IMG/VR virus record: IMGVR_UViG_2657244986_000004
DNA: 5,546 nt
DNA from: a virus
Taxonomy: Duplodnaviria > Heunggongvirae > Uroviricota > Caudoviricetes
Reading direction: 5' to 3' (one strand)
Positions 159 to 5,546 of this stretch are shown here, in pieces (positions within the stretch are counted from its first letter, which is position 1; each line of letters begins with the position of its first letter). Below the pieces are notes generated by a model, which did not search any database, was not told where the DNA came from, and saw only the letters and a list, made by a program, of their open reading frames with translations. The translations under genes were made by a program, and so were the position numbers.

Positions 159-617
159 ATGAGTCGGTTAACCGCGATTATCTCCGCTCTGGTTATCTGC
201 ATCATCGTCTGCCTGTCATTGGCTGTTAATCATTACCGTGATAACGCAATCGCCTACAAAGAGCAGCGCGATAACAAGGCCAGTGAACTGGAGAAGGCGA
301 ACGCCACCATCGCTGACATGCGGAAGCGTCAACGTGATGTAGCAGAACTCGACGCAAGATACACAAAGGAGCTTGCTGATGCTAACGCGACTATCGAAAG
401 TCTCCGTGCTGATGTTTCTGCTGGGCGTAAGCGCCTGCAAGTCGCCGCCACCTGTGCAAAGTCAACGACCGGAGCCAGCGGCATGGGCGATGGAGAAAGC
501 CCAGGACTTACAGCAGATGCTGAACTCAATTATTACCGTCTCCGAAGTGGAATCGACAAGATAACCGCGCAGGTTAACTACCTGCAGGAATACATCAGGA
601 CGCAATGCCTGAAATAA
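159..617 (+). CDS. Rz: Rz i-spanin (inner-membrane spanin subunit)
   Basis: The six-frame ORF is 30..617, but the N-terminus [29 protein letters not shown]... at 159 is near-identical to my recollection of the lambda Rz N-terminus ([29 protein letters not shown]...). It has a single N-terminal transmembrane segment followed by a charged, coiled-coil-like periplasmic region. GGAG lies 9 nt upstream of the ATG at 159. The ATG at 30 would add a 43-residue extension overlapping the endolysin 3' end and is rejected. Confidence 0.88.
373..564 (+). CDS. Rz1: Rz1 o-spanin (outer-membrane lipoprotein), embedded in the +1 frame of Rz
   Basis: The 63-aa ORF lies wholly inside Rz in a different frame. 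It has a signal peptide ending in a lipobox-like VSAC ([22 protein letters not shown]), followed by a proline-rich mature region ([16 protein letters not shown]). This is the classic lambda Rz1 architecture. The exact start (373 vs 379) is uncertain. Confidence 0.75.
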
Positions 618-648
618 TTTTTTTGCAAATCACAAAGTCCATTTAATG

Positions 649-671
649 AGCCTCGCGATGCGGGGCTTTTT
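649..671 (+). terminator. Rho-independent terminator downstream of Rz
   Basis: AGCCTCGC (649-656) pairs with GCGGGGCT (660-667), one G-U wobble, 3-nt loop GAT. It is followed by a T-run at 667-671. Confidence 0.6.
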
Positions 672-678
672 GCAATAA

Positions 679-703
679 ATGCGTACCGCAACGCATGTTT
701 TTT
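679..703 (+). terminator. Second tandem Rho-independent terminator
   Basis: ATGCGT (679-684) pairs with ACGCAT (691-696), loop ACCGCA. It is followed by G and a six-T run at 698-703. Confidence 0.55.
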
Positions 704-818
704 ACACCGAACCTGCCCCTTTGGAATGGGCCTTTGAGGATACCAGTTAGTGCTGGCGAGCCTCGGTGGGCTGGTTTCCTGTGCGGCAAAGGTTCATTTC
801 AAAGAGTAGGTACACGCT

Positions 819-1316
819 ATGAAATCATTAACCCTCTTCAATCAACCAATTCGTATCGGTGAAGATGGCATGATCTGCCTCACTGATATGTGGAAAGCCA
901 GTGGTAAAAGTGAATCTGAATCGCCTTACCACTACCTGCGAAACAAGCAGACCAAAGAGTTCTTAGCCGAGCTGGAGAAAAACCACGAATCTGTGGTTTT
1001 TACTGAGCGCGGTGTACACGGTGGAACATATGGCGGGAAGTTTGTTGCTTACGATTATGCGGCTTGGTTAAACCCCGGGTTCAAGTACGCGGCCTATAAA
1101 GTCCTCGATGACTACTTCACCGGAGAACTTCAGCATCGCAACAGCTTAAGTGCGCAGCTCAACATGAAATGTCATGAGTTTGACCAGAAGAAAGACATGG
1201 CGAGCTTCTGCGGACAAGGGCTGGCAGCATGGCGCTATACGAAGCCAGTGTTGGTCGCTGAGATTAACTCCCTGGCTAACCAGCTGCAGATTACGATCCC
1301 CGGGCTTCCGGGATGA
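819..1316 (+). CDS. KilA-N (APSES-type) domain protein, phage accessory gene
   Basis: A 165-aa ORF. The N-terminal region (...IRIGEDGMICLTDMWKASGKSESESPYHYLRNKQTKEFLAEL...ERGVHGGTYGGKFVAYDYAAWLNPGF) fits the KilA-N/APSES pattern as I recall it from Mbp1-type sequences (...VNATHILKAAN..K......GG.GKYQGTWV...). The domain call is from memory, not a search. The RBS is weak (GTAGG about 8 nt upstream). Confidence 0.55.
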   Translation: MKSLTLFNQPIRIGEDGMICLTDMWKASGKSESESPYHYLRNKQTKEFLAELEKNHESVVFTERGVHGGTYGGKFVAYDYAAWLNPGFKYAAYKVLDDYFTGELQHRNSLSAQLNMKCHEFDQKKDMASFCGQGLAAWRYTKPVLVAEINSLANQLQITIPGLPG

Positions 1317-1576
1317 GTGATCGTGTCATTGAATGCGCCTCCAGAGCGGGGCGCGACTTCTCAGAGTTCATGAAAGGCGAGAAGGGCATGATGGAAGCAT
1401 TGGCCTCGGTGGATGAGTTTGGCGAGCAGCTGCGCCTCAACGGCTGTGTCAATCATCACTTTGTTAGCTACATGATGCGGAACTCGATCATGCAGGCATT
1501 CATGGACATGGCAAAAGCCGAGAGGAAAGAAGAGCGCCGGCGTAAGCGAGCGGAAGCAAAAGCAAAAGTGAAGTAG
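1313..1576 (+). CDS. Hypothetical protein (87 aa), translationally coupled to the upstream KilA-N gene
   Basis: The ATG at 1313 overlaps the upstream stop (ATGA at 1313-1316). The C-terminus is highly charged and Lys/Arg-rich (KAERKEERRRKRAEAKAKVK). No family recognised. It could be an independent small gene or the detached C-terminal part of a longer KilA-N protein. Confidence 0.5.
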   Translation: MSDRVIECASRAGRDFSEFMKGEKGMMEALASVDEFGEQLRLNGCVNHHFVSYMMRNSIMQAFMDMAKAERKEERRRKRAEAKAKVK

Positions 1577-1611
1577 CCATTACAAAGCCCATTTACGGGT
1601 GGGCTTGATAA
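1577..1611 (+). repeat. Direct repeat copy A (35 bp), contains a 7-bp stem hairpin
   Basis: CCATTACAAAGCCCATTTACGGGTGGGCTTGATAA, immediately after the stop of the 87-aa ORF. AAGCCCA pairs with TGGGCTT. No T-run follows. It matches copy B at 29 of 35 aligned positions by my hand alignment. Confidence 0.6.
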
Positions 1612-1996
1612 TGAAACCGGAATTTATTCTGGGCCACCAGTTAACGGCAGTACCACGAAACAACCCAAGCCAGTAAGTGGGGAAATAACACTGGCAGCCA
1701 CTGAAAGATGAAGCTCCTGCCTTAAGGCAAAAAAGATTCTTTGTGGTGGCGGACTGATGGAAAGACATCGGTTATTGCAGAGGCCATTCAATGAGTGGTC
1801 TCGACAATGGCTTATACCCTACACGGGATAACTTAACTGATATCCCTTTTAACGGATAAAGGTATTCAAGCCTGACACATCATGCGCTGTATCGTCGCTG
1901 TATTCCCGCATTAACCATGACCGTAGCCCGACGGGGAACACCTTCTGCACGAGTGTGCGGAAAATCAAAGAATTACGAGAACTACTCAATGACTCT

Positions 1997-2030
1997 CCAT
2001 TACAAAGTCTATCTGCGGGGGGCTTGATAA
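1997..2030 (+). repeat. Direct repeat copy B (34 bp), degenerate copy of A
   Basis: CCATTACAAAGTCTATCTGCGGGGGGCTTGATAA. The first 11 nt and last 11 nt are identical to copy A. The hairpin is not conserved. It lies about 60 bp upstream of the 74-aa gene start. Confidence 0.6.
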
Positions 2031-2053
2031 AGGTGCTTTCACCTCGCTTAGCA

Positions 2054-2062
2054 TGGTATGTT
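2054..2062 (+). promoter_or_regulatory. Candidate extended -10 promoter element (TGgTATGTT) for the 74-aa gene
   Basis: TGnTATGTT fits the extended -10 pattern TGnTATAAT. It lies about 28 nt upstream of the ATG at 2090 and just upstream of a GGGAGG Shine-Dalgarno (2080-2085). No convincing -35. Prediction by eye only. Confidence 0.3.
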
Positions 2063-2089
2063 CTGACTACCAACTTTTTGGGAGGACAC

Positions 2090-2314
2090 ATGGAACTGAT
2101 AAATGGACGGCCAGGCAGAGATTTTATAGTGGGAACATATACCTACTCAGAAATTAAAGATCTTAACTTCATGGCTAAGGAAGAGAAAAGAGCTCGTGAA
2201 GAGCTAAAGCATCGGGGTTACGAATTGGCGTATATCAAGGCGGACTCTGAATGTAACGGGATGTTTGTCAGGGCGTACCGGGTCTATACTGACAAAGCGC
2301 CATTTAATGTCTAA
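2090..2314 (+). CDS. Hypothetical small protein (74 aa), first gene of the AT-rich accessory cassette
   Basis: The ATG at 2090 is preceded by a strong SD GGGAGG (2080-2085). The six-frame ORF starts at GTG 1955, but that extension has no RBS and overlaps repeat B. Translation: MELINGRPGRDFIVGTYTYSEIKDLNFMAKEEKRAREELKHRGYELAYIKADSECNGMFVRAYRVYTDKAPFNV. No family recognised. The local sequence is visibly AT-richer than the flanks. Confidence 0.6.
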   Translation: MELINGRPGRDFIVGTYTYSEIKDLNFMAKEEKRAREELKHRGYELAYIKADSECNGMFVRAYRVYTDKAPFNV

Positions 2315-2361
2315 ATATACCTCGGGCGGTTTTTTACGTTCATTACCGTACGCAATTACAG

Positions 2362-2382
2362 CAGGCATTCATTGAGTGCCTG
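2362..2382 (+). promoter_or_regulatory. Intergenic hairpin / inverted repeat between the two cassette genes
   Basis: CAGGCA (2362-2367) pairs with TGCCTG (2377-2382), 9-nt loop. No T-run follows, so it is not a classic terminator. Possible operator or RNA-processing element. A -35/-10-like pair (TTATCA ... TATTCT) lies just downstream at about 2393-2420. Confidence 0.3.
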
Positions 2383-2449
2383 TGATAATGATTTATCAAC
2401 GTGCTTGCAAACGGTATTCTAGACCTCCAATTATCCTAAGGAGGTTTTT

Positions 2450-2854: not shown

Positions 2855-2914
2855 AATTTCTACCCTCACGAGTTAAGTTGTTTTGTGATGGTTATTCGCA
2901 ATGAATATCTCTAG

Positions 2915-2941
2915 CCACTGGCATTTGCTGGTGGTTTTTTT
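2915..2941 (+). terminator. Rho-independent terminator closing the AT-rich cassette
   Basis: CCACTGG (2915-2921) pairs with CTGGTGG (2928-2934), 7 bp including two G-U wobbles, loop CATTTG. It is followed by a seven-T run at 2935-2941. Confidence 0.5.
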
Positions 2942-3041
2942 ATGCGCATCCCTCGCGCACCACAAAGGGAGTCTTTCAGTAGTGATTCGTAACCGGCTCA
3001 TTTAAACCGTCTGGTCTGTTTCCTCCGGCTCTACAAAAATA

Positions 3042-3719
3042 ATGTCCATCATTTTTAATGGACACTATCGTATGAAACACCGGACCTGGATCACTGAAGC
3101 TTTACGTCTTCACTTTGAAGAACATTTACCCCGGGTTGTGGCCGGGCGTCGCCTGGGTGTACCAAAATCAACAGTTTGTAGTATGTTCGTGCGCTTTCGG
3201 AGAGCTGGCCTTTCGTGGCCTTTGCCCGCAGGCATGTCGGAGCAGGAACTTGATGCCTGCCTTTACGGACAATTTTCCACGGTACCAGTCGTACGTCCTG
3301 AAAGCACCGTTATATCCGAAGCCCCCGTGGTAAAAAAACGTCCCCGGCGGCCCAACTTCCCTTATGAGTTTAAAATCGCCTTAGTGGAGCAGTCACTGCA
3401 GCCCGGAGCCTGTGTGGCGCAGATCGCCCGGGAAAACGGAATCAACGATAACCTGCTCTTCAACTGGCGCCATCAATACCGGAAAGGTGGCCTGCTGCCT
3501 TCCGGAAAAAATATGCCGGCACTGCTTCCCGTGACGTTAACGCCGGAGCCGGATAATAAAATCCCGGCCCCCGCACAGGAACCAGAGCAGATAAATACAC
3601 CGTCCGACAGTCTGTGTTGTGAGCTGGTTCTGCCGGCCGGAACTCTCAGGCTTAAAGGTAAACTGACGCCGGCGTTATTACAGACACTTATCCGCGAAAT
3701 AAAAGGGAGCAGCCACTGA
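3042..3719 (+). CDS. tnpA: IS66-family accessory protein TnpA (orf1)
   Basis: A 225-aa ORF. The segment ...PRRPNFPYEFKIALVEQSLQPGACVAQIARENGINDNLLFNWRHQYRKG... matches the helix-turn-helix region of IS66 TnpA proteins as I remember them. The start is ambiguous: ATGs at 3042, 3060, 3072 and 3234 are in frame and none has a clear SD. Confidence 0.8.
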   Translation: MSIIFNGHYRMKHRTWITEALRLHFEEHLPRVVAGRRLGVPKSTVCSMFVRFRRAGLSWPLPAGMSEQELDACLYGQFSTVPVVRPESTVISEAPVVKKRPRRPNFPYEFKIALVEQSLQPGACVAQIARENGINDNLLFNWRHQYRKGGLLPSGKNMPALLPVTLTPEPDNKIPAPAQEPEQINTPSDSLCCELVLPAGTLRLKGKLTPALLQTLIREIKGSSH

Positions 3720-4066
3720 TGATATCTCTCCCTGCAGGTTCGCGTATCTGGCTGGTTGCAGGTATCACCGATATGCGAAATGGCTTTAACGGCCTGGCAT
3801 CAAAAGTTCAGAACGTCCTGAAGGATGACCCGTTCTCCGGACACCTGTTCATCTTCCGCGGACGCCGGGGTGACCAGATAAAAGTGTTGTGGGCTGACAG
3901 TGACGGACTGTGCCTCTTCACCAAACGCCTGGAGCGGGGCCGCTTCGTCTGGCCAGTCACCCGTGACGGCAAGGTGCACCTTACTCCGGCTCAGTTATCC
4001 ATGCTTCTTGAAGGTATCAACTGGAAGCACCCGAAACGAACGGAACGCGCTGGAATCCGCATATAA
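3719..4066 (+). CDS. tnpB: IS66-family TnpB (orf2)
   Basis: A 115-aa protein, MISLPAGSRIWLVAGITDMRNGFNGLASKVQNVLKDDPFSGHLFIFRGRRGDQIKVLWADSDGLCLFTKRLERGRFVWP..., the hallmark IS66 Orf2 sequence pattern. The ATG at 3719 overlaps the tnpA stop by 1 nt. Confidence 0.9.
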   Translation: MISLPAGSRIWLVAGITDMRNGFNGLASKVQNVLKDDPFSGHLFIFRGRRGDQIKVLWADSDGLCLFTKRLERGRFVWPVTRDGKVHLTPAQLSMLLEGINWKHPKRTERAGIRI

Positions 4067-4085
4067 CCCGTTGTAAAGTGAGGAT

Positions 4086-5546
4086 ATGGACACCTCACTT
4101 GCTCATGAGAACGCCCGCCTGCGGGCACTGTTGCAGACGCAACAGGACACCATCCGCCAGATGGCTGAATACAACCGCCTGCTCTCACAGCGGGTGGCGG
4201 CTTATGCTTCCGAAATCAACCGGCTGAAGGCGCTGGTTGCGAAACTGCAACGTATGCAGTTCGGTAAAAGCTCAGAAAAACTTCGTGCAAAAACCGAACG
4301 GCAGATACAGGAAGCACAGGAGCGAATCAGCGCACTTCAGGAAGAAATGGCGGAAACGCTGGGTGAGCAATATGACCCGGTACTGCCATCCGCCCTGCGC
4401 CAGTCTTCAGCCCGTAAACCGTTACCGGCCTCACTTCCCCGTGAAACCCGGGTTATCCGGCCGGAAGAGGAATGCTGTCCTGCCTGTGGTGGTGAACTCA
4501 GTTCTCTGGGATGTGATGTGTCAGAGCAACTGGAGCTTATCAGCAGCGCCTTTAAGGTTATCGAAACACAACGTCCGAAACAGGCCTGTTGCCGGTGCGA
4601 CCATATCGTGCAGGCACCAGTACCTTCAAAACCCATTGCACGCAGTTATGCCGGAGCGGGGCTTCTGGCCCATGTTGTCACCGGGAAATATGCAGACCAT
4701 CTGCCGTTATACCGCCAGTCAGAAATATACCGTCGTCAGGGAGTGGAGCTGAGCCGTGCCACACTGGGGCGCTGGACAGGTGCTGTTGCTGAACTGCTGG
4801 AGCCGCTGTATGACGTCCTGCGCCAGTATGTGCTGATGCCCGGTAAAGTCCATGCTGATGATATCCCCGTCCCGGTCCAGGAGCCGGGCAGCGGTAAAAC
4901 CCGGACAGCCCGGCTGTGGGTCTACGTCCGTGATGACCGTAACGCCGGTTCACAGATGCCCCCGGCGGTCTGGTTCGCGTACAGTCCGGACCGGAAAGGT
5001 ATCCATCCACAAAATCACCTGGCCGGTTACAGCGGTGTGCTTCAGGCCGATGCTTACGGTGGTTACCGGGCGTTATACGAATCCGGCAGAATAACGGAAG
5101 CCGCGTGTATGGCTCATGCCCGGAGAAAAATCCACGATGTGCATGCAAGAGCGCCCACCTACATCACCACGGAAGCCCTGCAGCGTATCGGTGAACTGTA
5201 TGCCATCGAGGCAGAGGTCCGGGGCTGTTCAGCAGAACAGCGTCTGGCGGCAAGAAAAGCCAGAGCCGCGCCACTGATGCAGTCACTGTATGACTGGATA
5301 CAGCAACAGATGAAAACACTGTCGCGTCACTCAGATACGGCAAAAGCGTTCGCATACCTGCTGAAACAGTGGGATGCACTGAACGTGTACTGCAGTAATG
5401 GCTGGGTGGAAATCGACAACAACATCGCAGAGAACGCCTTACGGGGAGTGGCCGTAGGCCGGAAAAACTGGATGTTCGCGGGTTCCAACAGCGGTGGTGA
5501 ACATGCGGCGGTGTTGTACTCGCTGATCGGCACATGCCGTCTGAAC
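4086..5546 (+). CDS. tnpC: IS66-family transposase TnpC (orf3), 3'-partial (continues beyond the window)
   Basis: My own translation from the ATG at 4086 is open in frame for 487 codons to the last base of the window; an in-frame TAA at 4074-4076 precedes it. It is absent from the ORF track only because it has no stop in the window. N-terminal leucine-zipper-like region ([25 protein letters not shown]...), a Cys cluster (CPACGGEL...CCRCDH), then the transposase core (...[23 protein letters not shown]...[29 protein letters not shown]...). Confidence 0.9.

Follow-up and report, generated by a model that had tools for sequence, protein, structure and literature searches.

Several described systems place short palindromes between genes. 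Repetitive extragenic palindromic (REP) sequences, bacterial interspersed mosaic elements (BIME) and mRNA-stabilising 3' stem-loops are imperfect palindromes of ~35-40 nt that follow stop codons without a U-tract, can block 3' exonucleases and confer differential stability within operons; REPs are present in hundreds of dispersed copies on the host chromosome and are associated with RAYT transposases. The RNase III hairpins of T7 (R1.1) are intercistronic and combine an upper and a lower stem with an internal loop, and the cleaved 3' hairpin stabilises the upstream mRNA. Integron attC sites are imperfect palindromes found at the 3' ends of arrayed small genes; their conserved inverted boxes enclose a variable centre and a spacer that stays unpaired, and they show single-strand specificity. 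Late operons of lambdoid phages reportedly contain moron terminators and intrinsic terminators, as Juhala and colleagues are said to have described in 2000. It has long been asked whether lambdoid mosaics are formed via conserved linkers or arise from illegitimate recombination with subsequent selection, and boundary sequences of lambdoid phages have been proposed as foci of homologous exchange (the modular theory of Susskind & Botstein 1978, and Clark et al. 2001 for HK620, both as cited in PMC3029335). The concept of linker sequences and intercistronic hairpins is already known. Here we describe a family of 38-42-nt hairpins in a 5,546-nt stretch of phage DNA (IMG/VR record IMGVR_UViG_2657244986_000004; the whole stretch is referred to as the window), which is the late region of a lambdoid prophage and is 99.8% identical over positions 1-2988 to a prophage of E. 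coli E21845.

An earlier note on this DNA had listed a single recurrent motif at four positions, 632-648 (ACAAAGTCCATTTAATG), 1582-1595 (ACAAAGCCCATTTA), 2002-2014 (ACAAAGTCTATCT) and 2292-2309 (ACAAAGCGCCATTTAATG). All four strings are present at these positions; those at 1582 and 2002 belong to the hairpin family, those at 632 and 2292 do not, and two true members, at 1772-1810 and 2353-2391, had been overlooked. A covariance model of the family (R1) was built and used to scan the window, phage genomes and IMG/VR loci. In the window, it identified four copies, all on the + strand and with E at or below 1.6e-10, and no other match below E=3:

1577..1614, + strand: element A, including the copy at 1582, directly after the TAG stop of an 87-aa gene (R1 56.6 bits, E 5.5e-15)
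1772..1810, + strand: element D', TTATTGCA-GAGGCCATTC-AAT-GAGTGGTCTC-GACAATGG (R1 46.1 bits, E 1.4e-11)
1997..2033, + strand: element B, including the copy at 2002, decayed (R1 42.9 bits, E 1.6e-10)
2353..2391, + strand: element C, CAATTACA-GCAGGCATTC-ATT-GAGTGCCTGT-GATAATGA, 38 nt past the stop of a 74-aa gene (R1 46.8 bits, E 8.4e-12)

Members of the family have the layout CCATTA-CA-(variable stem of ~10 bp with a 3-6-nt loop)-GA-TAATGG, that is, a basal stem of 6 bp (CCAUUA/UAAUGG), a CA/GA 2x2 internal loop and an upper stem of ~10 bp, the sequence of which varies but remains complementary. The ACAAAG string of the proposed motif is part of the 5' arm of the hairpin, type A reading (stop)-CCATT-ACAAAG-CYYAYC-TRCK-GGTGGGCTT-GATAATG. 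Element A, which follows its stop codon with a gap of 0 nt (compared to 38 nt for C), folds at -17 kcal/mol (z -3.0) into the 6-bp basal stem, the 2x2 internal loop, an upper stem of 9-10 bp and a tetraloop. Element B carries a 1-nt deletion in the 3' arm and a right box reading GATAAAG, and folds no better than shuffles; the repeats corresponding to A (1577-1613) and B (1997-2030) are nevertheless related, with 81% identity over 26 nt (local-alignment p<0.002). The upper stems are GCAGGCATTC/GAGTGCCTGT in type C, AAAGCCATTC/GAGTGGCTTT in type D and GAGGCCATTC/GAGTGGTCTC in its D' variant, which differs from type D by compensatory A-U to G-C changes. D' is the same element in HK97 (at 38857) and HK620 (at 19134), P22 carries a G.U intermediate at 40310, and a piece of element C (window 2355-2396) matches Klebsiella and Escherichia phages.

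The constraint on pairing was assessed in a main collection obtained by a pattern scan of IMG/VR (ACAAAG-N8-16-GGGCTTGATAA; at least 120 loci) and in a wider search with the outer boxes ATTACA...GATAATG alone. Exact outer boxes enclose five different non-A middles, each folding at -9.6 kcal/mol or lower. When one mismatch or fewer was accepted in the flanks, ~10 structured non-A cores were recovered along with ~30 unstructured ones, ~28 of the latter being expected by chance; in the structured class, only 0-2% of shuffles fold equally well. RNAalifold independently predicted the same stem from a 24-sequence alignment, with compensatory changes in 10 of 13 pairs. By direct pair count, 93% of cells are paired and double changes are found in 12 of 16 pairs, a result matched by none of 500 shuffles, whereas slid partners are only 31-46% paired. 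The basal stem itself shows a series from A-U (most copies) through G.U (P22) to G-C (window D', HK97 and HK620). In the upper stem, G.U pairs outnumber A.C mismatches by 131 to 2, and the CA/GA internal loop is kept in 62 of 64 distinct copies. Strong R1 matches are all on the + strand, in the window, in the whole HK97 and HK620 genomes and in seven phage or prophage stretches. The element is a strand-specific folded element. Because divergent stems remain complementary, G.U and A.C differ in this way and the internal loop is invariant, we infer that selection acts on a folded single strand. The possibility of a terminator or RNA on the minus strand was discarded on the A.C mismatches (2 versus 131 G.U) and a poor TGTAATGG tail.

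In the window, D' abuts a further pair of symmetrical sequences:

1813..1858, + strand: two TAT(N)CC-N-GG(N)ATA palindromes (1813-1830 and 1841-1858)

Palindromes of the form TAT(N)CC-N4-12-GG(N)ATA (TTATCCC/GGGATAA type) are located 2-3 nt past 50 of 138 elements and within 120 nt of 51 of 138, compared to 2% expected; they may represent a second hairpin or a protein-binding site forming a composite with the element.

The second property of the family concerns its flanks. When the window was aligned with named phages (blastn), homology broke at 1574, 1613, 1769-1774, 1997 and 2030-2033, all of which are element edges, and matching to O104:H4 prophages begins exactly at 1997. The earlier note had envisaged a boundary or recombination linker coinciding with mosaic breakpoints; this held for the copies within A and B, on the edges of which alignment breaks fall, and not for those at 632 and 2292, which lie outside the family. 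The 132 pattern matches listed have upstream flanks falling into 33 clusters and downstream flanks falling into 41, in many combinations, and in 6229 of 8128 pairs of distinct contexts (77%) similarity is lost on both sides, no more than 10 nt from the element. At one locus (L189), both flanks are kept and a type D hairpin replaces the type A hairpin. All 11 cases of type D have GCTTATACCC downstream, with 4 different upstream sequences among them; because the type always keeps the same downstream sequence, joints are commoner on the left (stop-codon) side. Judged from these alignments, the element forms a conserved island to either side of which the sequences are unrelated, with mosaic joints at its edges; the breakpoints there are the comparative evidence bearing on a possible preference of recombination for the element.

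Carriers of the family include HK97, HK620, P22 and Stx phages, with 1-4 copies per phage that are found only in the accessory-gene region that lies between the lysis genes and terminase in lambdoid phages. Searching whole genomes with R1 gave two copies in HK97, two in HK620 and one in P22, all post-lysis and on the late strand with none elsewhere, so that a motif marking gene boundaries genome-wide is not what these three genomes contain. No element was found by R1 in positions 44000-48502 of lambda. In 100 IMG/VR loci, the model gave 139 matches of at least 42.9 bits, the next being at 25 bits, and copies within one locus are on the same strand. As for gene context, in 85 loci with at least 2.5 kb of upstream sequence, 80 of 82 Rz matches, in 80 loci, are upstream and on the same strand, and in 90 loci with at least 3 kb downstream, 78 of 79 TerL matches, in 78 loci, are downstream and on the same strand at a median of +1.4 kb. 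The element is always co-oriented with late transcription and usually starts 0-5 nt past a stop codon; among the 132 pattern matches listed, the spacing between the end of the upstream stop codon and ACAAAG is exactly 5 nt in 52 and 5-18 nt in 105.

Type A is found in 1362 of 5426 complete E. coli genomes (~25%), at 1-4 places in each, and in 147 phage records of Salmonella, Escherichia, Shigella, Klebsiella and Enterobacter. Among species representatives it extends to at least 12 other enterobacterial genera, including Leclercia, Pantoea, Kluyvera, Buttiauxella, Pragia and Budvicia. Contigs of metagenome-assembled genomes labelled Nanosynbacter, Bacillota and Collinsella (L234, L235, L250, L254 and L255) carry the element with flanks that match E. 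coli-type loci, and are probably mis-binned. The element is unannotated in all records examined, including the heavily curated P22, HK97 and HK620. Rfam searched with the window at a permissive E-value gave no family match, the only match being a spurious one to a snoRNA (E 0.49), and the literature searched describes no specific hairpin or boundary element for this region, the boundary list for HK620 of Clark et al. 2001 not having been compared. The hairpin family thus appears to be undescribed in annotations, Rfam and the searched literature, although the HK620 'boundary sequence' of Clark et al. 2001 may include it.

We propose that the element is a non-terminating stem-loop of the late mRNA that doubles as a homology linker of ~40 nt, and we put the probability of this reading, including its RNA-level role, at about one half. 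The hairpin would form in the late (pR') mRNA as an intercistronic stem-loop and would serve as a 3' exonuclease barrier or a processing site that determines how stable the upstream message (accessory or lysis) is, while RNA polymerase would continue past it into the packaging genes. Because phages that are otherwise unrelated share ~40 nt kept nearly identical by selection, the element would also be a homology patch, long enough for Red/Erf/Sak-type recombinases to swap adjacent modules. A recognition site for an RNA-binding factor is possible as well, since the CA/GA internal loop is nearly invariant.

Several observations weigh against this proposal. Lambda lacks the element in the stretch searched, which indicates that it is dispensable. 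The hairpin subtype tracks the downstream flank (type D, 11 of 11), a poor fit with a role for the upstream gene. The seeds used for covariation were picked with a folding filter and the main pattern contained a fixed GGGCTTGATAA, so that pairing and the invariance of the 3' arm are inflated. A hairpin in + strand single-stranded DNA would give an equal asymmetry of G.T versus A.C. Primary sequence (boxes, CA/GA loop and type A stem) is far more conserved than a simple stabiliser hairpin requires, and element B persists though its fold is lost.

Three other candidate functions were discarded. A promoter is not supported: neither GATAAT (taken as a -10) nor TTGATA (taken as a -35) is accompanied by a partner hexamer at a suitable distance, and the promoter scan was silent. 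A stop-hairpin-ATG translational coupler was rejected because an open reading frame of at least 40 aa starts from the element ATG in only 6 of 114 distinct downstream contexts; in two of these six, the 174-aa frame begins MINEETDMATE, which makes the downstream ATG the probable true start. Pas, STnc100 and other prophage small RNAs are located upstream of the holin gene and not post-lysis.

A broader version of an RNA-level role is that the family is an undescribed Enterobacterales-wide signal, in which the nearly invariant basal stem and CA/GA loop would be read by a dedicated factor, be it RNase III, a different RNase or some protein of the phage or host, the element serving both as late-transcript punctuation and as a universal crossover point for shuffling accessory-gene cassettes between lambdoid phages, with a correctly oriented Chi evolved in the loop and 3' arm of a sizeable subset; we consider this unlikely.

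The main rival to the stem-loop in late mRNA acts at the DNA level and is, in our estimate, unlikely. Here the + strand hairpin would form in single-stranded DNA, for example in the 3' tail left by right-end resection, or would be the target of a structure-specific recombinase or nuclease, with a part in recombination, end protection or cassette exchange instead of a role in RNA. The layout resembles attC in that its terminal boxes are conserved and inverted, its 2x2 spacer is unpaired and its stem varies; arrays of copies are found behind small accessory genes, their orientation is fixed relative to the genome end, and both edges show sharp junctions. The core motifs of integrons are, however, absent, the junctions lie outside the element and not at an internal crossover point, and the same hairpin subtype follows unrelated genes, unlike integron cassettes that each carry their own attC. 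No recombinase or nuclease gene was seen to co-travel with the element; named carrier phages differ in terminase type, and loci differ in the upstream gene. Chi sequences bear on the same question. Perfect Chi (GCTGGTGG) is present in 25 of 141 copies and in 13 of 30 species-level copies, and in many type A copies (e.g. L007 3392-3429, L230, L238 and L258) it is built from the loop (U)GCU and the 3' arm GGUGG. Chi within elements invariably occupies the late-sense strand, with no reversed case, and this is the orientation that acts on RecBCD when it enters from the right end (PMC12315714). Types C and D nevertheless lack Chi, as do the window copies, A (ACGGGTGG) and B (GCGGGGGG) matching 6 of 8 positions each and C and D' carrying none.

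It is also conceivable, but quite improbable, that the element is a homology linker and nothing else, persisting only through the spread of recombinants that crossed over in it, with a functionless hairpin. Very high sequence identity across unrelated contexts, independently assorting flanks and the retention of element B in spite of its structural decay would all be accounted for, and such boundary sequences have already been postulated in lambdoid phages (cited in PMC3029335). Maintenance by recombination alone gives no reason for a palindrome, however, and types A, C, D and D' differ in their stems yet stay complementary, including in the basal A-U, G.U and G-C series. A functionless linker is disfavoured because the stems covary; the G.U to A.C ratio and the invariant internal loop are likewise at odds with it.

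The remaining alternative is the interpretation of the earlier note, a motif of 14-18 nt at four gene ends acting as a terminator module or as an antiterminator site. The features on which it bears are the following:

632..648, + strand: copy 1, a spacer that separates the stop codon of Rz from its terminator, not a member of the family (Rz-linked; R1 negative)
648..671, + strand: intrinsic terminator after Rz, GAGCCTCGC-GAT-GCGGGGCTT plus T5 (supported by folding, annotation in relatives and breakpoints)
679..703, + strand: another hairpin of terminator type, bearing a T-run and placed in tandem with the preceding one (terminator scan and fold)
758..774, + strand: 'degenerate duplicate' of the terminator stem, a chance match (p=0.11; z +0.54)
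2292..2309, + strand: copy 4, codons for D-K-A-P-F-N plus 2 nt of the final V codon, near the 3' end of the 74-aa gene, not a member of the family (conserved C-terminus of phrog_6100; R1 negative)
2913..2943, + strand: intrinsic terminator after the 134-aa gene, its 3' arm being a perfect Chi octamer (2927-2934)

The motif ACAAAGYCCATTTA, with up to 3 mismatches, has 3 matches in the window compared to 1.0 expected, and 13 of 200 shuffles give as many; copy 4 aligns to it only with an indel. Local similarity of copy 1 to A and to copy 4 is nominally significant (p about 0.002-0.006 in pre-chosen 100-nt regions), a significance lost on correction for a search of the whole window, and R1 detects neither copy in the window even at E<=10. 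Copy 1 always has the same Rz 3' end upstream and never switches partner, and its sequence drifts among phages (TCC, TCA or AAAATCC); copy 4 is conserved coding sequence, the relatives of which are all 99% identical and therefore uninformative on divergence. Membership of both was rejected because of the negative R1 result, the link of copy 1 to Rz and the coding nature of copy 4. Other features recall the idea: the 'CATCACA' left-box variant of type D resembles the context of copy 1 (ATCACAAAG), and in some phages an Rz-type gene is directly followed by a canonical element (L062 and L260). The motif does not mark four consecutive genes, as the KilA-N gene (819-1316) has no copy, B follows no credible window gene and copy 4 is intragenic. 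As for the GC-rich segment and T-run said to follow the first and last copies, copy 1 does precede a genuine terminator, its hairpin at 648-668 and T5 at 667-671 lying in a stretch (620-700) that folds at -25 kcal/mol (z -2.6), and next to copy 4 CCTCGGGCGGTTTTTT is present but forms no stable stem (z -0.66) and is not flagged by the terminator scan. The supposed duplicate at 758-774 has only the 8-mer GAGCCTCG in common with the terminator and folds no better than shuffles. With a motif count at chance, two of four copies outside the family, no T-run on either strand of A, B, C or D' and no nut or boxA/boxB signature in the window, this interpretation is most improbable.

The genuine terminators in the window are those at 648-671, 679-703 and 2913-2943. 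The first carries a rho-independent terminator annotation in the mEp235 and Emek records, and position 671 is the end of homology to HK97, mEp235 and Dewey. In phage Dewey (L008), an HNH endonuclease gene (2112-2663) separates the Rz terminator from the KilA-N gene; its insertion point coincides exactly with the 671 breakpoint, and it is another kind of mobile insertion at such boundaries. The Chi at 2927-2934 (+ strand), the sole perfect one in the window, is located ~330 nt upstream of the terminase small-subunit gene in an IS-free relative (IS, insertion sequence). The gene order is Rz spanin, KilA-N/ORF11CD3 protein, the 87-aa hkbL-like gene, the 74-aa gene, the 134-aa gene and an IS66-family insertion:

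159..617, + strand: Rz-like spanin, last gene of the lysis cassette (phrog_13 at 2e-76; PF03245)
819-1316: KilA-N/ORF11CD3 protein gene
1313-1576: 87-aa hkbL-like gene, with a TAG stop
2090-2314: 74-aa gene (phrog_6100 matched over 1-74 of 74)
2450-2854: 134-aa gene
2989..5546, + strand: IS66-family insertion (tnpA, tnpB and tnpC; HTH_Tnp_1, TnpB_IS66 and DDE_Tnp_IS66), outside the feature under study

Identity to the E21845 prophage stops at 2988, the IS66-family element being inserted relative to E21845, and the window ends within the IS. It sits between the accessory genes and the terminase genes, which lie ~300 nt further on in the IS-free relative. At the 3' end of the 87-aa gene, a (GCAAAA)n hexanucleotide repeat (window ~1553-1570) varies from ~1 to 9 copies among relatives (L132-L211) that are otherwise 98-100% identical, so that the hkbL-like protein has an (AK)n tail of correspondingly variable length. 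The stretches between elements, 1614-1771 and 1811-1996, are ~87-96% identical in many phages and hold no annotated + strand gene, a 53-aa minus-strand coding sequence being annotated in the second of them in PhiR49_1; they could be decayed cassettes or non-coding RNAs.

A linker that is concrete, abundant and experimentally manipulable, with a defined structure and sharp junctions, makes the linker hypothesis of lambdoid mosaicism directly testable. For annotators, the family is a new cis-element in a region now labelled 'hypothetical' or left blank, and the embedded Chi variants tie it to recent work on Chi-rich lambdoid phages.

Compared with the systems described at the outset, the element shares a stable GC-containing hairpin with intrinsic terminators (-17 kcal/mol for A; 10-bp stems in C and in D'). 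No U-run, taken as at least 4-5 U within ~8 nt of the stem, is present: the tails read GATAATGA/G followed by AACCGG, CTTATA, TGCTTT or TTTATC and the terminator scan was silent on both strands, in contrast to the Rz-linked hairpin at 648-671, which has such a run. The same difference, on either strand, separates it from moron terminators, which it resembles as a GC-containing hairpin directly after accessory genes of the late operon. Antitermination by N or Q finds no counterpart, as no nut-type [CT]GCTCTT[TA]A occurs anywhere in the window. With attC sites it shares the palindrome, inverted boxes, spacer, variable centre and strand specificity. The attC cores RYYYAAC...GTTRRRY are absent, the boxes of the element being CCATTACA...TGATAATGG, the phage records examined show no annotated integrase close to the locus and no IntI, and, unlike attC with its one site per cassette, identical hairpin subtypes follow 3-11 different upstream sequences with junctions outside the element. 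The resemblance to T7 R1.1, in the succession of stem, internal loop and stem, is only geometric, and RNase III substrates are typically longer than a basal stem of 6 bp and about 16 bp in total. REP and BIME sequences are alike in palindrome size, in their place after stop codons and in the lack of a U-tract; they are dispersed, whereas the element is found at 1-4 places in an E. coli genome, is confined to one region of the phage and carries conserved boxes of its own. Finally, with the boundary or linker sequences of lambdoid phages it has in common that a short conserved sequence stands at gene boundaries between independently assorting, non-homologous modules, and it differs from them in being a structure-constrained, strand-specific hairpin family confined to one region of the genome.

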